Shown: piece by piece, positions 27,096-36,741 of the stretch
How positions within the stretch are numbered: position 1 is the stretch's first letter
Layout: each line of letters begins with the position of its first letter
Assembly (NCBI GenBank): GCA_017561085.1
Contig: JAFZDQ010000060.1
Coordinates: 17,691 to 81,690 of the forward strand
Direction of reading: 5' to 3'
Source: Lachnospiraceae bacterium
Lineage (GTDB): Bacteria; Bacillota; Clostridia; Lachnospirales; Lachnospiraceae
DNA: 64,000 nucleotides
Made by a program: the position numbers and the translations under genes
The notes under the pieces: generated by a model
Told to the model about the DNA's origin: nothing
Database searches by the model: none
Seen by the model: the letters and a program-made list of their open reading frames with translations, nothing else

Positions 27096-27109
27096 AAGTA
27101 AGGTCGTTT

Positions 27110-27231
27110 GACCATGCCGAAGACAGTAGGTGCTAAAGCCATTAGGCAGAAGCGTAAGTGTATCGCCTACCGAGGAGAAGAGTTTATGATGAAACATTCT
27201 ATCCTTCCGTCTTTCGGGAGGATATTTTTTT
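27110..27231 (+). ncRNA. L10 leader (rplJ autoregulatory RNA) with attenuator terminator
   Basis: CCGAAGACAGTAGG...CCTACCGAGG pattern, then ATCCTTCC/GGGAGGAT hairpin with a T-run. Confidence 0.8.
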
Positions 27232-27233
27232 AG

Positions 27234-27283
27234 ATGCGTATCCCGCAGGAAGGAAAGCGTTTAAGTGCAACCTGCACGTGCGC
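27234..27283 (+). repeat. Dispersed 50-nt structured motif, copy A (divergent)
   Basis: ATGCGTATCCCGCAGG-AAGGAAA-GCGT-TTAA-GTGC-AA-CCTGCACGTGCGC. Same architecture as 28484 and 36592. Confidence 0.55.
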
Positions 27284-27352
27284 AGAGCTTGTGTATGGCA
27301 CGGGCATATATTAAACTCCTATCGGCAGAAAATCTAAAAGGAGGTAAAGAAA

Positions 27353-27964
27353 GTGGCAAAAGTTGAATTGAAACAGCCTATCGTAGCTGAAATCGCTGAA
27401 AGTATCAAAGATGCGCAGTCCGTAGTTCTCGTAGACTACCGTGGACTTACCGTTGAACAGGATACTGTTCTCCGTAAACAGCTCCGTGAGGCAGGAATCA
27501 CTTACAAGGTTTACAAAAACACCATGATGAACTTCGCGTTCAAGGGAACTGCCTTCGAAGGACTTGCTCCTTATCTTGAAGGACCCAGCGCTATTGCAAT
27601 TTCTACAGAGGATGCTACAGCACCCGCAAGAGAACTTTGCAAATTCGCTAAGACTGCTCCCAAGCTTGAAGTTAAGGGCGGTGTAGTAGAAGGTGATGTT
27701 TACGATGCAGCAGGAATCGCTGAAATCGCTAAGGTTCCTTCCAGAGAAGAATTACTTTCCAAGTTATTTGGCAGTATGCAGGCTCCTATCGCAAACCTTG
27801 CTCGTGTTCTTGATCAGTTGGCAGAAAAAGGTGGCGCAGCAGCATGTGACGCACCTGTAAAAGAAGAAGCTCCTGCTGAAGCAGAAGCACCCGCAGCAGA
27901 AGAAGCTCCCGCAGAGGAAGCTCCTGCAGCAGAAGAAGCACCTGCAGAAACACCTGCAGAATAA
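27353..27964 (+). CDS. rplJ: 50S ribosomal protein L10 with Ala/Glu/Pro-rich C-terminal extension
   Basis: VDYRGLTV, YKVYKNTMM, PSREELLS. GTG start with GGAGG RBS. Confidence 0.97.
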   Translation: MAKVELKQPIVAEIAESIKDAQSVVLVDYRGLTVEQDTVLRKQLREAGITYKVYKNTMMNFAFKGTAFEGLAPYLEGPSAIAISTEDATAPARELCKFAKTAPKLEVKGGVVEGDVYDAAGIAEIAKVPSREELLSKLFGSMQAPIANLARVLDQLAEKGGAAACDAPVKEEAPAEAEAPAAEEAPAEEAPAAEEAPAETPAE

Positions 27965-28034
27965 TGAATGAAACATCATTCCGAACTATTCGGAAGTAAA
28001 CGAAACCAAAAATATTTAAATGGAGGAAAATAAA

Positions 28035-28409
28035 ATGGCAAAGTTATCCACACAGGAATTTATTGATGCTATCAAAGAGTTAACAGTATTAGAATTAAAC
28101 GAATTAGTTAAAGCATGTGAAGAAGAATTCGGCGTATCTGCAGCAGCAGGTGCAGTTGTAGTTGCAGCAGCAGCAGAAGGCCCTGCAGCAGAAGAAAAGA
28201 CTGAATTCGACGTAGAACTTACAGAAGTAGGTCCTAACAAGGTTAAGGTTATCAAAGTAGTTCGTGAAGCTACTGGCCTTGGACTTAAGGAAGCGAAAGA
28301 CTTAGTTGACAACGCTCCTAAGATGGTTAAAGAAGGCGTTTCTAAGGAAGAAGCTGAAGATATCAAGGGCAAACTTGAAGCTGAAGGCGCTAAGATTACT
28401 CTTAAATAA
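28035..28409 (+). CDS. rplL: 50S ribosomal protein L7/L12
   Basis: [28 protein letters not shown]. Confidence 0.98.
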
Positions 28410-28446
28410 TTTAAGACGTAGTTTTGCTTTAGAAGAAAACGTAAGT

Positions 28447-28483
28447 AAAGCCGGTCATGTGCGATGCACGTGGCCGGTTTTTT
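28447..28483 (+). terminator. Intrinsic terminator after rplL
   Basis: GCCGGTCATGTGC-GAT-GCACGTGGCCGG followed by TTTTTT. Confidence 0.75.
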
Positions 28484-28535
28484 ATGCGCAGCTCGCGGAA
28501 AGGGAGATAATTGCTGCGCAATACCGCTCGCGCGC
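28484..28535 (+). repeat. Dispersed 50-nt structured motif, copy B
   Basis: ATGCGCAGCTCGCGGA-AAGGGAGATA-ATTGC-TGC-GCAAT-A-CCGCTCGCGCGC. Confidence 0.8.
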
Positions 28536-28570
28536 GAAAATAAATTTTTTCCAAATTCTGAAAATATTTG

Positions 28571-28599
28571 TTGACTGGAAAAAAGTTTTGTAGTAGAAT
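28571..28599 (+). promoter_or_regulatory. Sigma-A promoter of rpoBC
   Basis: TTGACT-N17-TAGAAT. Confidence 0.75.
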
Positions 28600-28680
28600 G
28601 TAGGATGCTATATTGTGGTAATATATGCGAATTTTCAGGTAATATTACTTCAAAATCATAAAGAACGGGGTGAAATGTCA

Positions 28681-31600
28681 ATGGAAAAGAACAGAATACG
28701 TCCTATCGCCGCAGGCAGGAATCTACGTATGAGTTATTCACGACAGGAAGAAGTTTTGGAGATGCCAAACCTGATAGAAGTCCAGAAAGACTCCTATAAG
28801 TGGTTTTTGGAAGAAGGTCTCAAGGAAGTTTTTGATGATATCTCTCCAATTGCAGACTACAGCGGACATTTAAGTCTGGAGTTTGTAGACTTTGAATTGT
28901 GTGAAGATGACGTAAAATATTCTATTGAAAAGTGTAAGGAAAGAGATGCAACTTATGCAGCTCCCTTAAAAGTTAAGGTTCGTCTCTACAATAAAGAGAA
29001 GGAAGAAATCAGCGAACATGAAATCTTCATGGGTGATCTTCCCATTATGACTGAGACGGGTACATTCGTTATTAACGGTGCTGAGCGTGTAATCGTAAGC
29101 CAGCTTGTCCGTTCTCCCGGCATTTATTATGCAATCGGACACGACAAGATTGGTAAGAGACTGTTCTCTTCAACCGTAATTCCGAACCGTGGTGCATGGC
29201 TTGAGTATGAAACGGATTCCAATGATATTTTCTATGTTCGTGTAGATAGAACAAGAAAGGTTCCGATTACTGTCCTGATCAGAGCACTTGGTGTTGGTAC
29301 CAACGAAGAAATCAGGGAATTGTTCGGTGAAGAGCCTAAAATTGAAGCAAGTTTTTCCAAAGACGTTTCTGTAGATTATCAGGGAGGTCTCTTAGAGTTA
29401 TACAAAAAGATCCGTCCCGGTGAGCCTTTGAGCGTGGAAAGTGCAGAAAGCCTTATCAATTCCATGTTCTTTGACCCCAGAAGATATGACCTTGCGAAGG
29501 TTGGTAGATATAAATTCAACAAGAAACTTGCACTGCGTAACAGAATCAGACATCACATCTTAGCAGAGGATGTTGTTGATACACTGACCGGTGAAGTGCT
29601 TGCAACAAAGGGAACCAAAGTAACTGCAGAACTGGCTGATGCTATCCAGAATGCGGCTGTTCCTTATGTATTTATCCAGACAGAAGAAAAGAATGTAAAG
29701 ATTCTTTCCAATATGATGGTAGATATCAACAACTTTGTGGAATGCGATGCTAAGGCACTGGGCATTACCGAAAAGGTTTACTACCCTGTGCTTGCACAGA
29801 TTATCGAAGAGTTCGGTGAAGATCCCGAAGCGCTTGCTGATGCGATTAAGAAGAATGTTTGCGAACTTGTTCCCAAGCATATTACCAAGGAAGATATCCT
29901 TGCATCCATCAACTACAATATTCACTTAGAATACGGTATTGGTAATGATGACGATATCGACCACCTTGGAAACAGACGTATCAGAGCCGTTGGTGAACTT
30001 TTACAGAACCAGTACAGAATCGGTCTTTCCAGATTGGAAAGAGTGGTTCGTGAAAGAATGACTACACATGATGCTGATGATATTTCTCCTCAGGTACTGA
30101 TTAACATTAAACCTGTTCAGGCAGCAGTCAAGGAATTCTTTGGTTCCTCCCAGTTGTCCCAGTTTATGGATCAGAACAACCCCTTAGGTGAACTTACTCA
30201 TAAGAGACGTCTGTCCGCTCTCGGTCCCGGTGGTTTGTCCAGAGACCGTGCCGGATTCGAGGTTCGAGACGTTCATTATTCCCATTACGGAAGAATGTGT
30301 CCTATCGAAACACCTGAAGGTCCCAACATCGGTCTGATTAACTCTCTTGCTTCTTATGCAAGAATTAATGAGTACGGTTTCGTGGAAGCACCTTACCGTG
30401 AGATTGACAAAACTGACCCGGCTAACCCCAGGGTTACAGATACAGTTGTTTATATGACAGCTGATGAAGAAGATAACTATCATGTAGCACAGGCGAACGA
30501 ACTTTTGGATGAAAACGGCTACTTTGTAAAGAACACCGTTTCCGGTCGTTACAGAGAAGAAACTTCCGAATATCCTAAGACTATGTTCGATTACATGGAC
30601 GTATCACCTAAGATGGTGTTCTCCGTGGCTACCGCACTGATTCCCTTCCTTGAGAATGACGATGCGAACCGTGCGCTGATGGGATCTAACATGCAGCGTC
30701 AGGCAGTACCGCTTCTTACCACAGAGGCTCCTGCAGTAGGTACCGGTATGGAACCTAAGGCAGCGGTTGACTCCGGTGTTTGTGTGGTTGCAAGAAAAGC
30801 AGGTACCGTAGATTATGTTTCATCCAATTTAATTAAGATGACACATGATGACGGAGAAAAGGCTGAATATCATTTGACCAAGTTCTCCAGAAGTAACCAG
30901 AGTAACTGTTACAACCAGAAGCCCATCGTATTTAAGGGCGACCACGTGGAAGCAGGACAGGTAATTGCCGATGGTCCTTCTACCGCAATGGGTGAACTTG
31001 CTCTTGGTAAGAACCCTCTCATCGGTTTCATGACCTGGGAAGGTTACAACTACGAAGATGCTGTTCTTTTAAGTGAAAGACTGGTACAGGAAGATGTTTA
31101 TACTTCCGTACACATTGAAGAATATGAAGCAGAAGCCCGTGATACCAAATTAGGTGCAGAAGAAATCACAAGGGACGTTCCCGGTGTTGGTGATGATGCA
31201 CTGAAGGATTTGGACGAAAGAGGTATCATCCGTATCGGTGCGGAAGTACGTGCCGGAGATATTCTGGTAGGTAAGGTTACTCCTAAGGGAGAAACAGAAT
31301 TAACCGCAGAAGAAAGACTCCTTCGTGCAATCTTTGGTGAAAAGGCAAGAGAAGTAAGAGATACTTCCTTAAAGGTGCCTCACGGCGAATATGGTATTAT
31401 CGTAGATGCCAAAGTATTTACCAGAGAAAACGGTGACGAATTATCACCCGGCGTAAATCAGGCAGTACGTATTTATATCGCACAGAAGAGAAAGATTTCC
31501 GTAGGTGATAAGATGGCTGGTCGTCACGGTAACAAGGGTGTAGTTTCCCGTGTACTTCCCGTAGAAGATATGCCTTACCTTCCTAACGGACGTCCTCTTG

Positions 31601-32538
31601 ATATCGTACTTAATCCTCTGGGCGTACCTTCCCGTATGAACATCGGACAGGTACTTGAAATCCATTTATCCCTTGCAGCTAAGGCTCTTGGCTTTAACGT
31701 TGCAACACCCGTATTTGACGGTGCAAACGAAGTGGATATCATGGACACCCTGGATTTGGCGAATGATTATGTAAACTTAAGCTGGGAAGAATTCGAAGCA
31801 AAACACGGCAAAGAATTACTTCCTGAAGTACTTGAATATTTATCCGAAAACAGAGACCACAGAGAACTTTGGAAGGGTGTTCCGATTTCCAGAGACGGTA
31901 AGGTAAAACTCCGTGACGGTAGAACCGGTGAATATTTTGACAGCCCGGTAACCATCGGTCACATGCATTACTTGAAGCTCCACCATCTGGTAGACGACAA
32001 GATCCATGCACGTTCCACAGGTCCTTACGCGCTGGTAACACAGCAGCCTTTAGGTGGTAAGGCACAGTTCGGTGGACAGCGTTTCGGTGAAATGGAAGTT
32101 TGGGCACTGGAAGCTTATGGTGCATCTTATACATTGCAGGAAATCCTGACAGTGAAATCCGACGATGTTGTTGGTCGTGTGAAGACATACGAAGCAATCA
32201 TCAAGGGTGAAAATATTCCTGAACCCGGTATTCCGGAATCCTTCAAGGTATTGCTTAAGGAATTACAGTCCATCGGTCTTGATGTGAAAGTACTTCGTGA
32301 AGACAATACAGAGGTTGAAATCATGGAAACCATCGATTACAGTGACAGTGATTACCGTTACGAGATGGAAGGCGAAAACAAGAACTATGATTACGAACAG
32401 GGTTCTTTAGCCTCCATGGGTTATCAGCAGCAGGAATTTGACGCAGAAAGCGGCGAGCTGGTAAGCGCAGAAGATGATTTTGAAGAAGCTTACGAAGATG
32501 ATTTCGATAGCTATGATGATGATTCTTTTGATGAATAA
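28681..32538 (+). CDS. rpoB: RNA polymerase beta subunit
   Basis: [41 protein letters not shown]. Confidence 0.99.
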
Positions 32539-32594
32539 CAGCGAAGTTACCTTAAAATTGCGATATGAATAAATATCCGGAAGGAGTGCCAAAA

Positions 32595-35500
32595 ATGTCA
32601 GAAACAAAACAGGAAGTGTATCAGCCGATGACATTCGATGCCATCAAGATTGGTTTAGCATCACCCGAAAAAATTCTGGAATGGTCCAGAGGTGAAGTTT
32701 TAAAGCCTGAGACCATCAACTACAGAACCTTAAAGCCTGAAAAGGACGGTCTGTACTGTGAAAAGATTTTCGGACCCAGCAAGGACTGGGAATGTCATTG
32801 TGGTAAATATAAGAAAATCAGATATAAAGGCGTTGTCTGTGACCGTTGCGGCGTAGAAGTTACCAAGTCCAGCGTGCGTAGAGAACGTATGGGACACATT
32901 GAGCTTGCAGCTCCCGTATCCCATATCTGGTATTTTAAAGGAATCCCCAGCCGTATGGGCTTAATCCTTGATTTGTCCCCCAGAGTGCTTGAAAAAGTTC
33001 TGTACTTTGCTTCCTACATCGTACTTGATGCAGGCGAGACAGACTTAGAATACAAGCAGGTTCTTTCTGAAAAAGAATACCAGGACGCTAAGGATACATG
33101 GGGAAGCAAAGCATTCCGCGTAGGAATGGGTGCTGAAGCAATCAAAGAATTACTTCAGGCAATCGATTTGGAAGCGGAAACAGCAGAACTTCGTACCGGC
33201 CTTAAGGAATCTACCGGTCAGAAACGTGCGAGAATTATCAAGAGATTGGAAGTAGTTGAAGCTTTCAGGGAATCCGGCAATCAGCCTGAATGGATGATTA
33301 TGGATGCCATCCCGGTAATTCCTCCGGATTTAAGACCTATGGTTCAGCTTGACGGCGGACGTTTTGCAACCTCAGACTTAAATGATTTATACAGAAGAAT
33401 TATCAATAGAAATAACCGTTTAAAGAGACTCCTTGAATTAGGTGCACCTGACATTATCGTTCGTAACGAAAAGAGAATGCTTCAGGAAGCAGTGGATGCA
33501 CTCATTGACAACGGCAGACGCGGAAGACCGGTAACAGGACCCGGTAACAGAGCACTGAAATCTTTATCCGACATGCTCAAAGGTAAGGGCGGACGTTTCC
33601 GTCAGAATCTCCTTGGTAAGCGTGTAGACTACTCCGGACGTTCCGTTATCGTAGTAGGACCGGAACTTAAGATTTATCAGTGTGGTCTTCCTAAAGAAAT
33701 GGCTATCGAGCTTTTCAAGCCTTTCGTAATGAAAGAACTGGTGGCAAGAGGCATTTCACAGAATATTAAGAATGCAAAGAAATTAGTAGAAAGATGGGAT
33801 GCGCAGGTTTGGGACGTTCTCGAAGAAGTAATCAAAGAACATCCTGTAATGCTTAACCGTGCTCCTACACTTCACAGACTGGGTATTCAGGCGTTTGAAC
33901 CCATTCTGGTAGAAGGTAAGGCTATTAAGCTTCATCCCCTTGTTTGTACAGCGTTCAACGCCGACTTCGACGGTGACCAGATGGCTGTACACCTTCCCCT
34001 TTCCATGGAAGCGCAGGCTGAGTGCAGATTCTTACTTCTTTCACCCAACAACCTGCTGAAGCCTTCCGATGGTGGTCCCGTAGCCGTTCCTTCACAGGAT
34101 ATGGTTCTTGGTATTTACTACCTGACACAGGAAAGACCCGGTTCTGTCGGTGAAGGTAAATTTTACAAGAGCGTAAACGAAGCAATCCTTGCTTATGAAA
34201 ATAAGGCTTGTACGCTTCACTCCAGAATTAAAGTAAGAGTATCCAAAGTAAATGCGGAAGGCGAAACGATTACCGGTACGGTAGAATCCACATTGGGACG
34301 TTTCCTCTTTAATGAAATCCTTCCTCAGGACCTTGGTTATGTAGACAGAAATGATCCGGAACAGTTCTTACTTCCTGAAGTTGACTTCCATGTAGGTAAG
34401 AAACAGTTAAAGCAGATCCTTGAAAAAGTAATTAATACACATGGTGCATCCAAGACAGCAGAAGTGCTCGACTTAATCAAAGCAACCGGTTATAAATACT
34501 CTACAAGAGCTGCTATGACCGTATCCATTTCCGATATGACCGTGCCTGCACAGAAACAGCAGATGCTGGATGAAGCACAGACAACCGTAGATAAGATTGC
34601 ACAGAACTTCAGACGTGGTCTCATCACCGAAGAAGAAAGATACCGTGCAGTAGTTGAAACCTGGAACGATACCGATAAGCAGCTGACAGAAGTTCTGCTT
34701 GCAGGTCTTGATAAGTACAACAACATCTACATGATGGCTGACTCCGGTGCCCGTGGTTCCAACCAGCAGATTAAGCAGCTGGCAGGTATGCGTGGTTTGA
34801 TGGCTGATACAACAGGTAGAACCATTGAATTACCTATCAAGTCAAACTTCCGTGAAGGTCTTGACGTACTGGAATACTTCATGTCTGCGCATGGTGCTCG
34901 TAAGGGTCTGTCCGATACCGCTCTTAGAACAGCGGACTCCGGTTACTTGACCAGACGTATGGTTGACGTATCACAGGAACTCATTATCCGTGAAGTTGAC
35001 TGTATGGAAGGTGCGGAAGAAATTCCCGGCATGACAGTGAAGGCATTCATGGATGGTAAAGAAACCATCGAAAGCTTGAAAGACAGAATTACAGGTAGAT
35101 TTACCTGTGAAAATATGTATGACAAGGACGGCAATCTGATCGTTAAGAGAAATCATATGATTACTCCCAGCCGTGCAGCTAAGATTCTTAGCGTAGGCGT
35201 TGATGCAGACGGTAATCCTGTTGAGAAAGTAAAAATCCGTACCATCTTAAACTGCCGTTCCCGTAATGGTATCTGTGCGAAGTGCTACGGCGCGAACATG
35301 GCTACCGGTGAAGCAGTACAGGTTGGTGAAGCAGTTGGTATTATCGCAGCACAGTCTATCGGTGAACCCGGTACACAGCTTACCATGCGTACCTTCCATA
35401 CCGGTGGTGTTGCGGGTGACGATATCACACAGGGTCTTCCCCGTGTTGAGGAACTTTTTGAAGCAAGAAAGCCTAAGGGACTTGCAATCATCGCTGAATT

Positions 35501-36284
35501 TGGCGGTGTAGCAACCATTAAGGATACCAAGAAGAAACGTGAAATCGTGATTACCAACGAGGAAACAGGCGAAAGCAAAGCATACCTCATTCCTTACGGT
35601 TCCAGAATTAAGATTATGGACGGCGCAGTACTTGAAGCCGGTGATGAACTGACAGAAGGTAGTGTAAATCCTCATGACTTACTGAAGATTAAGGGAATCC
35701 GTGCGGTACAGGATTATATGCTCCGCGAAGTTCAGAGAGTATATCGTCTCCAGGGTGTAGATATCAGCGATAAGCATATCGAAGTTATCGTTCGTCAGAT
35801 GCTTAAGAAAGTAAGAATCGAAAACAACGGCGATACAGAATTCCTTCCCGGTACATTGGTTGACGTTCTTGAATATGAAGATATCAATGAACAGTTAATT
35901 GCAGAAGGTAAGGAACCCGCAGACGGTAAGCAGGTAATGCTTGGTATTACCAAGGCAGCACTTGCAACCAACTCCTTCTTATCCGCTGCTTCCTTCCAGG
36001 AAACCACTAAGGTTCTGACAGAAGCAGCAATTAAGGGTAAGGTAGATCCTCTTATCGGTCTTAAGGAAAACGTTATCATTGGTAAACTGATTCCTGCAGG
36101 TACCGGTATGAAGCGTTACCGTAATGCGAGACTCAGCACTGATTACCAGATGGAAGTGAAGATGGAAGAAGAAATCATCACTGACGAAGAAGTAATGGCA
36201 GATGAGGAAGTTGTATTAGCAGAAGCAGCTGATGATGTTGTGACAGATGTCATGACAGATGTGGAAGTTGCTGATGAAGAATAA
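32595..36284 (+). CDS. rpoC: RNA polymerase beta-prime subunit
   Basis: [12 protein letters not shown] catalytic motif and the CECHCGKYK...CDRC zinc finger. Confidence 0.99.
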
Positions 36285-36306
36285 ATAAAAAACGACGAAA
36301 ATATAC

Positions 36307-36345
36307 GAAAATCCGACACAATTCATGTGCCGGATTTTCTGTTTT
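36307..36345 (+). terminator. Intrinsic terminator after rpoC
   Basis: GAAAATCCG-ACACA-ATTCA-TGTGC-CGGATTTTC followed by TGTTTT. Confidence 0.65.
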
Positions 36346-36591
36346 GTTGAACATCCACAATTTATTTAACGGAAAAATAATTAATTTTTGTCATAATGCC
36401 GCATTGCACCTATCGACAGAAAGGAGTAATATCTATATAGGATAATAGTCCTAATTTAATAGCATATTGTTAAATAAGGAATGCCCGCTACATCGAGCCT
36501 TATTTCAGTGTATATCTGGTCTTCAGGTATGTAATGAAATGAGACTCGATTTTTTATTTCACAGGAATTTCCTGAGAAATAAAAAATACAG

Positions 36592-36641
36592 ATGCGCAGC
36601 TCGCGGAGAGGAAAATGTCGCATGGCGACCCGCTCGCGCGC
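36592..36641 (+). repeat. Dispersed 50-nt structured motif, copy C
   Basis: ATGCGCAGCTCGCGGA-GAGGAAAAT-GTCGC-ATG-GCGAC-CCGCTCGCGCGC. Confidence 0.8.
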
Positions 36642-36741
36642 TTAAACTTGCGCGGATGCGCAAGTTTTCTTATGGAATTGAAGCGAAATCCCTGCTTCAA
36701 TTAAGAAAAAACAAATAGGGTTGAAAGAGAAGGAGAGAGAA

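Follow-up and report, generated by a model that had tools for sequence, protein, structure and literature searches.

A dispersed Lachnospiraceae repeat behind intrinsic terminators, probably a miniature mobile DNA element

The 50-nt structured motif that an earlier note reported in three copies in the window (the whole 64,000-nucleotide stretch of Lachnospiraceae DNA that was analyzed) is real, but it is one module of a larger unit, a small dispersed repeat element of ~84 nt that is specific to the Lachnospiraceae, includes a third hairpin, and occurs ~56 times genome-wide. The element is multicopy, patchy, near-identical in some genomes, and present or absent at orthologous sites, all of which are established here. 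We conclude that it is probably an undescribed miniature, non-autonomous, terminator-homing mobile DNA repeat of the REP/SPRITE/bcr1 class and not a regulatory RNA. No description of Lachnospiraceae small repeats was found in the literature searched. In nearly one-third of the genera of this family, a dominant one in gut and rumen, the element sits precisely at the 3' end of terminators; it confounds noncoding RNA and terminator prediction, and it is usable as a strain-typing marker.

The repeat unit and its copies in the window

The ~84-nt unit comprises the outer stem P1, a conserved unpaired purine strand (RAGGAA), hairpin P2, and hairpin P3 with a T-rich tail; in many copies a palindrome, H (TTCATAGGAA..TTCCTATGAA followed by an A-run), precedes these parts on the 5' side. 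Read 5' to 3', the full unit, which is ~128 nt in Roseburia yibonii, begins with the AT-flanked H (..ATAGGAAATTCC-loop-GGAATTTCCTAT..) and the A-run, continues with a GC-rich mini-hairpin (P0) 3' of the A-run and a composite P1, interrupted by a bulged A and a 2x2 loop of pyrimidines, that encloses RAGGAA and P2, and ends with the terminator-like P3 and its tail. The RAGGAA strand is kept across genera, and P3 with its U-rich tail is terminator-like in most of them. The source genome has a long form, which includes H but not P0, and a short form beginning with ATGCGCAG. Among 60 copies taken from other genomes, 45 carry module H, and inspection of 100 loose pattern matches yielded ~22-25 H-related palindromes in the source genome, most of them directly 5' of an element. 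The inverted repeats of the element are its internal hairpins; neither the ends of the 128-nt unit (GAATCATAGG... and ...CTTTATTTTA) nor those of the short form (ATGCGCAG... and the P3 tail) are mutually inverted. The partial copies in the source genome are all short truncations, with no autonomous IS that shares the ends of the element, and truncated copies supply their purine strand as the ribosome-binding site of downstream open reading frames.

Table 1. Element copies and adjoining terminators in the window
Feature	Window positions	Strand	Description and evidence
Attenuator/terminator hairpin and T-run, 3' end of L10 leader	27201..27231 (hairpin 27201-27223, T-run 27225-27231)	+	Target site of copy A; L10_leader match 27099-27237, 59 bits (Rfam), with sequence and hairpin plus T-run test
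Copy A, divergent full-length element in the rplJ 5' UTR	27232..27314 (core 27234-27283)	+	Covariance model match (C64:44922-45004)
rplL intrinsic terminator	28450..28483 (hairpin 28450-28477, T-run 28478-28483)	+	Target site of copy B; MFE -25.1 kcal/mol, T at 6 of the last 8 nt
Copy B, short form, P1/P2 only, without P3	28484..28535	+	Covariance model match, 65.7 bits (C64:46172-46245)
Module H of copy C, AT-flanked palindrome ATTTTTTATTTCACAGGAATTTCCTGAGAAATAAAAAAT	36549..36587	+	Recurrent 5' module of the long form; fold
Copy C core: P1 (GCGC-A-GC..GCGG / CCGC..GC-GCGC), unpaired GAGAGGAAAAT, P2 GTCGC-ATG-GCGAC	36592..36641	+	MFE fold reproduces the model
Copy C P3 AAACTTGCGC-GGAT-GCGCAAGTTT and T-rich tail TCTTAT, terminator-like 3' module	36644..36673 (hairpin 36644-36667)	+	Fold; helix 3 covariation

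As first noted, copies B and C have ATGCGCAGCTCGCGGA and CCGCTCGCGCGC in common and contain the inner hairpins ATTGC/GCAAT and GTCGC/GCGAC, respectively. Copy A, put forward as a divergent member of the same family, matched a model built from other copies (R1) at 54.2 bits (E = 1.7e-9); its fold has P1, the purine strand AAGGAAA, and P2, with P3 partly maintained via G-U pairs, and one congener (G013) has an ortholog upstream of rplJ. The full-length model match of copy C (88.1 bits) covers window positions 36590-36674 (C64:54280-54364). The statement that every copy follows a terminator-like hairpin holds for copies A and B, which follow the genuine attenuator/terminator of the L10 leader (RF00557) and the rplL terminator, respectively, but needs correction for copy C; the hairpin that had been taken for an independent terminator in the giant-gene leader is the recurrent module H of the element itself. 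Module H of copy C also contains a weak promoter-like match. Copy B separates the T-run of the rplL terminator from the conserved upstream part of the rpoB promoter, and it is missing from the rplL-rpoB spacer of 17 congeners, which have equivalent rplL terminators without an element.

Copy number, distribution, and insertion sites

The covariance model detected 56 copies in the 2.95-Mb source genome, in which the 16-mer arm common to copies B and C has 23 exact matches. Among 24 congeners, copy numbers ranged from 0 to 61, and 10 lacked the element entirely. Matches were found in 86 of 300 Lachnospiraceae genera, among them Roseburia, Agathobacter, Butyrivibrio, and Dorea, with hundreds of further copies across gut and rumen members of the family. 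These counts, together with the covariation described below, refute a chance GC-rich duplication confined to the window, a reading that the small copy number visible there might invite and to which we attach virtually no credence. Roseburia yibonii BX0805 (G270) has 19 copies of the 128-nt unit with 98-100% identity, and a different, unique terminator precedes each of them; the G002 genome has 61 copies. At another locus (C40), the ortholog in G019 has the terminator without the element. Tandem arrays occur, and many copies are at contig ends, indicating that the element breaks MAG assemblies. No Rfam 15 family matched the element, L10_leader being the only one to pass in the window; at E<=10 the three sites gave only sub-threshold chance matches (e.g., Chlorobi-1 at 20 bits against a cutoff of 50).

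At its 5' end the element directly adjoins the final T of an intrinsic terminator and points the same way as that terminator. In the source genome a hairpin and T-run directly precede 24 of 30 short-form copies, compared with 1.2% of random positions, and the same holds for long forms if the T-run that the H stem has taken up is included. The 5' end abuts the terminator T-run in 10/10 Roseburia yibonii copies. No target site duplication is visible in 10 identical Roseburia yibonii copies with unique flanks, although the T-run itself may be duplicated, and the orthologous loci compared did not yield an exact empty site. Copy number, patchiness, near-identical copies, presence/absence, and T-run abutment support the earlier proposal of a REP/MITE-like element targeting terminators.

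The upstream gene is co-oriented with the element in ~46 of 55 copies, a convergent gene faces 11-16 copies, so that some lie between convergent genes, and the genes neighboring or downstream of copies are functionally unrelated. A gene-specific cis-regulatory role at rplJ, rpoB, and the surface-protein gene, also raised earlier, is unsupported because the element tracks the upstream terminator and is also found between convergent genes, and because copy B is upstream of the rpoB promoter. The constant 5' UTR position at functionally related genes that typifies cis-regulatory leaders and riboswitches is not seen.

Covariation and the case for an RNA

All three helices covary strongly, which gives the covariation first noted in the window a statistical footing. 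In the source genome 16 of 26 pairs show double changes, a number reached by 0/500 shuffles; family-wide, 23 of 26 pairs covary, with 350 compensated cells, and 91.8% of cells are paired compared with 21-58% in slid registers. In P3 (helix 3) all nine of nine pairs covary. Strong covariation alone is no proof of RNA function, and template-switch correction in DNA can yield covariation in perfect palindromes without selection. The G-U pairs of copy A had been read as favoring the plus strand, and they are present in that copy, but family-wide G·T (36) and A·C (37) mispairs are equally rare and wobble pairs are few, so nothing favors a plus-strand RNA. This symmetry and the rarity of wobble are expected of a DNA palindrome readable on either strand and argue for a DNA-level constraint on the element.

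Several features would fit an RNA function as well, and these count against the mobile reading: the strict orientation with transcription, the upstream gene being co-oriented; the unpaired RAGGAA maintained across genera; and the terminator-like P3 with its U-rich tail in most genera. In copy A, which is within the rplJ leader and retained in two species, G-U pairs of the transcribed strand maintain P3. A functional RNA module, whatever spread it, would be kept for the action of its transcript in 3' UTRs or read-through RNA, be it as a back-up terminator (through P3), as a 3'-end stabilizer like the REPs of E. coli, or as a CsrA-like or SD-like decoy for a protein or the ribosome through the unpaired GGA/AGGAA strand; alternatively, it would be a multicopy small RNA gene. 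The promoter-like match in copy C, though weak, and the ribosome-binding sites of truncated copies are in keeping with such a module, but we consider it unlikely. G·U is not in excess of A·C and wobble is very rare, unlike in typical functional RNAs; most copies lie behind efficient-looking terminators, so little transcription is expected; and inspection of the copies revealed no promoter conserved across genera. Moreover, neighboring genes are unrelated, 10/24 congeners are wholly without the element, and 19 near-identical copies in one genome indicate spread rather than selection.

Candidate routes of spread and comparison with known systems

As a mobile DNA repeat, the element would spread by copy-and-paste via a single-stranded DNA intermediate. 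A putative trans-acting, structure-specific recombinase or transposase may recognize its hairpins, bulge, and unpaired purines, by analogy with IS200/IS605 ends, REPs, and attC sites, and the target would be the T-tract behind a terminator hairpin, possibly pairing with the element's own A-run. Insertion would be nearly harmless to the host, since the element lands behind a terminator and brings a second terminator-like hairpin (P3). Because P3 and its T-rich tail resemble the target, they may also explain the tandem arrays.

The mobile reading is weakened by the following findings, as by the lack of a defined target site duplication or exact empty site. The source assembly encodes no Y1 (PF01797), RVT_1, IS110, or IS91 transposase, and none of the four tracks element-rich versus element-free genomes. 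All 19 Roseburia yibonii matches that reach beyond the H palindrome are near full length, with no separated left or right ends, leaving no visible candidate there for an autonomous parent that shares its ends with the element. A REP/RAYT or IS200/IS605-derived (PATE) origin, in which a Y1 HUH transposase would recognize the hairpins as ends and place single-stranded DNA on the 3' side of a short target, leaving no duplication, is already disfavored and seems to us highly improbable. The hairpins are indeed subterminal, terminal inverted repeats are lacking, insertion is oriented and 3' of a fixed short target (the T-run), duplication is not visible, and structure is maintained in a DNA-like pattern. 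However, PF01797 is missing from the source genome, from G002, and from Roseburia yibonii, the genome with the recent burst, and is found in 7/17 element-free genomes; the DNA flanking Y1 genes, compared in six members of the family, has no similarity to the element. The REP/RAYT mechanism suggested earlier is thus unsupported. Retro-mobilization of an RNA, inserted at terminators by group IIC intron machinery, would account for a target preference and orientation like those of class C group II introns, but we find it scarcely credible: no reverse transcriptase is encoded in the source genome, 8 of the 18 further element-rich genomes examined lack RVT_1, intron domains and boundary sequences are missing from the element, and there is no wobble bias.

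The element points to a terminator-homing mechanism with a putative enzyme. We regard it as possible, though not probable, that it is either a new class of terminator-homing mobile element or the same element doubling as a family-wide 3'-end RNA module co-opted by the host. The new class would be moved by an enzyme that belongs to none of the known Y1, DEDD, Y2, and RT families and may be a conserved protein of the host; this enzyme would recognize a single strand in folded form (P1 with its bulge, the unpaired RAGGAA, and P2) while the A-run pairs with the T/U-tract of intrinsic terminators.

Among known repeats, the pneumococcal ones, especially SPRITE but also BOX and RUP, are ~100-150 nt, Gram-positive, intergenic, and clustered or nested, with a rho-independent-terminator-like hairpin and no transposase of their own (PMC10969869). 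They share with our element size, intergenic site, terminator-like hairpin, clustering, and lack of a transposase; there is no sequence relationship, and the cited text does not describe homing to resident terminator T-runs for SPRITE. RUP is bounded by terminal inverted repeats and partnered by an IS630 element, neither of which applies here. Classical DDE-derived MITEs likewise differ, since the element lacks terminal inverted repeats and no autonomous IS sharing its ends is visible in the source genome or Roseburia yibonii.

The element resembles the REP/BIME sequences of Enterobacteria and Pseudomonas, which have RAYT transposases. Both are short palindromic repeats outside genes that reach tens to hundreds of copies, are found between genes that run co-directionally or convergently, frequently form tandem clusters, and conserve structure over sequence; our 56 intergenic copies with three covarying helices are such high-copy imperfect palindromes, as are REPINs. 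In contrast, the element occurs in Firmicutes (Lachnospiraceae), has no RAYT/Y1 gene beside it in the source genome, Roseburia yibonii, or G002, lacks a GTAG-type head, abuts terminator T-runs exactly, and is much more complex, with four to five helices and a conserved unpaired purine strand. The bcr1 repeat of the Bacillus cereus group is a Firmicute-specific structured repeat of ~155 nt in tens to ~100 copies, patchy between strains, with T-rich ends, a stable predicted fold, and a reported TTTAT target duplication; the element shows no visible duplication and differs in sequence, fold, and taxon.

The homing site and orientation of the element match those of class C group II introns, which enter DNA immediately past the hairpin of an intrinsic terminator and face the way it does, but the element is ~84-130 nt with no ribozyme domains or RT, which many carriers lack. 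Integron attC sites, recognized by structure as folded single-stranded DNA, likewise have conserved outer arms, a variable paired center, and bulged or extrahelical bases, whereas the element is located behind terminators and lacks R/L core sites (GTTRRRY) and cassette arrays. Although the defining Y1 transposase does not co-occur with the element and IS200/IS605 flanks are dissimilar, IS200/IS605 ends and PATEs resemble it in their hairpin-bearing ends without inverted terminal repeats, the hairpins being subterminal, and in insertion with a fixed orientation on the 3' side of a short target, no duplication being visible for the element; by analogy, the element appears to work like IS200/IS605-family ends.

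Extent and fold of the repeat

Searches of the genome from which the window is drawn (2.95 Mb, 131 contigs, 42.5% G+C; the window is C64:17691-81690) enlarged a motif that the earlier note had described as a 50-nt unit in three copies, A, B and C. The left arm has 23 exact matches and the right arm 32; a two-arm pattern recovered 40 copies, an HMM 57 at E<1e-3, and R1, a covariance model of the element core (84 positions, 26 pairs), 56. Copies B (66 bits with R1) and C (88 bits) do have in common their left (16 nt) and right (12 nt) arms; the hairpins inside differ yet are self-complementary, and a GGA-containing purine strand precedes each. Copy A (54 bits) proved to be the divergent copy it had been taken for. 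Nor does the unit stop at the right arm: aligned copies run on through a short purine linker into a third hairpin, P3, and a T-rich tail. The commonest P3 is GATTGCGC-nnnn-GCGCAATC; compensated variants of it are numerous, and copy B has no P3. Tandem units, two or three each with a period of 79-80 nt, occupy about nine loci, where later units start at (G)CAGCTCGCGG and lack the first unit's first five bases, ATGCG. Copies lying no more than a few hundred bases from contig ends, both here (e.g., C2:139, C131:35, and C97:1247) and in related MAGs (G020:C55:157, G020:C64:44, and G021:C235:182), suggest that the repeat breaks short-read assemblies.

The compensatory base changes reported for the three copies were borne out in two alignments. 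Among 38 copies of the same genome, both-sided changes occur at 16 of the 26 pairs and 86.9% of cells are paired, values reached by 0 of 500 shuffles; slid registers pair just 20 to 58%. An alignment of 60 copies from ∼45 other genomes, fitted to R1 and hence leaning towards the model, has covariation at 23 of 26 pairs, with 350 compensated cells and 91.8% of cells paired. In divergent copies the 2x2 TC/TC loop of the outer stem, P1, gives way to Watson-Crick pairs, e.g., GCGCA-TGACGCGC / GCGCGTCA-GCGC. Single-sided changes are rare and symmetric (G·T 36 versus A·C 37). G·U is expected to be tolerated far better than A·C in a functional plus-strand RNA; the symmetry fits a constraint that acts on both strands or on a palindrome at the DNA level. 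The claim that G-U pairs favor the plus strand stands for copy A, where such pairs keep P3, but not for the family.

Upstream of the core, copies from other genera carry a palindrome, H (..ATAGGAAATTCC-loop-GGAATTTCCTAT..), with an A-run behind it (45 of 60 copies), and a GC-rich mini-hairpin, P0, of several compensated stem types (48 of 60). Pairing of the P0 region with GCGGAG of P1 was unsupported in copies bearing other P0 sequences. In the genome of the window, the long form has a shortened H and no P0, and the short form, which includes copies A and B, begins at ATGCGCAG. Since copy C is a long form, the hairpin that the earlier note read as a separate terminator in its leader is module H of the element itself. 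About 210 nt upstream of this H lies a 14-bp inverted repeat that scores as a terminator-like sequence on the minus strand; it is probably the terminator of rpoC. Inspection of 100 loose pattern matches left ∼22 to 25 as genuine H palindromes, the majority immediately 5' of a core. A few occur alone; H may be an independent element or a module that can separate from the core.

Rfam 15, at gathering and permissive thresholds, placed no family over the sites of copies A, B, or C; the sole family passing in the window was the L10 leader, which ends where copy A starts. That the SD-like strand and NTG might start a coding sequence was rejected by inspection, the frame varying among P2 types.

Features of the repeat family and its surroundings (C, contigs of the genome of the window; G, other Lachnospiraceae genomes)
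Feature	Position	Remark
Copy A	window 27234-27283	behind L10 leader, upstream of rplJ
Copy B	window 28484-28535	between rplL and rpoB
Copy C	window 36592-36641	upstream of surface-protein gene
L10 leader (Rfam)	window 27099-27237	
Module H of copy C	window 36549-36587	
14-bp inverted repeat	window 36307-36339	GAAAATCCGGCACA...TGTGTCGGATTTTC, minus strand; just 3' of rpoC ORF (end 36284)
Tandem arrays	C111:6611-6853, C22:18787-18951, C40:9631-9794, C23:39784-39951	outside window
Stand-alone H palindromes	C2:5327, C7:27279, C24:4209, C114:27654, C114:27684	TTCATAGGAAnTTCCTATGAA, T-run/A-run flanks; no core
Copies truncated after purine strand	C116:22050-22072, C119:20935-20975, C122:3650-3680	
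IS91-family (Y2) transposase fragments	G270:C4:136-393, G270:C2:420764-420964	at two R. yibonii contig ends

Position behind terminators

The adjacency to terminators noted for the first three copies is general: a stable hairpin plus T-run lies directly 5' of 24 of the 30 short-form copies whose 5' end is intact, compared with 1.2% of random positions. Long forms likewise follow gene terminators; in their case the element's A-run pairs with the T-run of the host and lengthens the H stem. According to crude ORF calls for 55 copies, ∼46 share their strand with the upstream gene; the downstream gene is codirectional in about two-thirds and convergent in the remainder. From this abutment, the upstream co-orientation, and the mixed downstream orientation, we conclude that the element tracks the upstream terminator and not the downstream gene.

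In the copies truncated after the purine strand, GGAAAGGAA sits 1 to 8 nt ahead of the ATG that starts the next ORF, which it may serve as a ribosome-binding site.

Distribution and recent spread

R1 copies among 24 congeners number 0 (ten genomes), 1 to 9, or 61. With one genome per genus sampled across the family, 86 of 300 genera had matches, many of them at least 15 candidates. An exact-pattern scan identified Roseburia, Agathobacter, Lachnobacterium, Butyrivibrio, Dorea, Sporofaciens, and Eubacterium sp. 14-2 as carriers; its matches in high-G+C phyla look like chance, the pattern being GC-rich. Among cultured carriers are Butyrivibrio hungatei NK4A153 and Dorea acetigenes. Roseburia yibonii BX0805 (G270) holds 19 copies of a 128-nt unit at 98 to 100% identity, each beginning right behind the T-run of its own, unique terminator and ending in CTTTATTTTA, with no target duplication visible. 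These near-identical copies are a recent burst.

The earlier note had proposed comparing orthologous spacers. None of 17 congeners has copy B in its rplL-rpoB spacer; the copy is a clean addition, with the T-run of the rplL terminator on one side and the conserved upstream portion of the rpoB promoter on the other. In several congeners this spot is occupied by other small insertions with inverted repeats, and the site behind the rplL terminator is a hot spot at which several small elements have inserted. At the C40 locus, the ortholog in congener G019 has the terminator and no element. Copy A has an ortholog solely in G013, the closest relative by RplL, and this is the single copy of G013; the expansion to 56 copies in the lineage of the window is therefore recent. 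No exact empty site was recovered for copy B in metagenomes (0 matches) or for the C40 locus; there G013 is not syntenic, and the G019 spacer has diverged too far for ends to be placed.

Within the rplL-rpoB spacer, a different ∼200-nt miniature element with terminal inverted repeats AACAGTTCAGCCATGC...GCATGGCTGAACTGTT lies right behind the rplL terminator in loci L018 (G018) and L027 (G020), and locus L013 (G013) has a short hairpin version of it. G021 has an H-like palindrome at this spot and G014 a larger insertion.

Plasmid vectors gave no match to the element. In a phage collection, matches were limited to six unverified "Bacteriophage sp." contigs from human fecal viromes, which match the 5' portion of the element; of these, the two on which the model was run (L227, MT836815.1:6146-6231; L228, MT835858.1) hold full copies. 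These contigs are either bacterial DNA in the preparations or Lachnospiraceae phages that could carry the element between hosts.

Candidate movers and related systems

We consider the element to be, most probably, a nonautonomous mobile repeat whose homing site is the DNA just 3' of the T-tract of a terminator. The main rival is a putative functional transcript acting in back-up termination, in 3'-end protection, or as a decoy via its GGA strand. Although the orientation of the element, the presence of P3, the conserved RAGGAA strand, and the retention of copy A would suit such a role, it seems unlikely, given that mispairs are symmetric, that the element sits after terminators, that many congeners lack it, and that the one promoter match inside H (weak, in copy C) has no conservation across genera.

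For a mobile repeat, the Y1/RAYT transposase raised in the earlier note was a candidate mover, and it did not hold up. The assembly has no Y1 (PF01797), RVT_1, IS110, or IS91 transposase, and none of these tracks the element across 18 or 19 element-rich versus 17 element-free genomes. Y1 is also absent from the burst genome, R. yibonii, and the flanks of Y1 genes have no similarity to the element; REP/RAYT and IS200/IS605 were rejected on these grounds. Retromobility through group II introns, whose RT does not co-occur, and IS110/IS1111 and IS91 as movers were set aside as well. Fragments of an IS91-family transposase do occur in R. yibonii; the family is absent from the other high-copy genomes. 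An autonomous parent in R. yibonii was also rejected: no left and right ends were found lying apart so as to flank a gene, the partial matches being opposite-strand H self-matches and one 22-nt match. Multicopy IS elements are frequently lost from MAGs, which tempers these absences.

A trans-acting enzyme would recognize the mobile repeat in the form of folded single-stranded DNA. Its insertion would be nearly neutral, since it lands behind a terminator and brings the terminator-like P3, and the resemblance of P3 and the T-rich tail to the target may explain the tandem arrays.

Small structured interspersed repeats are a known kind (e.g., REP/BIME, pneumococcal BOX/RUP/SPRITE, and bcr1). Neither Rfam nor a limited, word-based search of the literature returned a description of this one, and its architecture, precise terminator homing, breadth across Lachnospiraceae, and missing enzyme appear to be new. 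Unlike IS200/IS605, it is not accompanied by the defining Y1 enzyme, and we therefore do not file it there. In its working mode it resembles IS200/IS605 ends, REPs, and attC sites: it has hairpins, a bulged base, and conserved unpaired purines, lacks terminal inverted repeats, and inserts in one orientation beside a fixed short target with no visible duplication.
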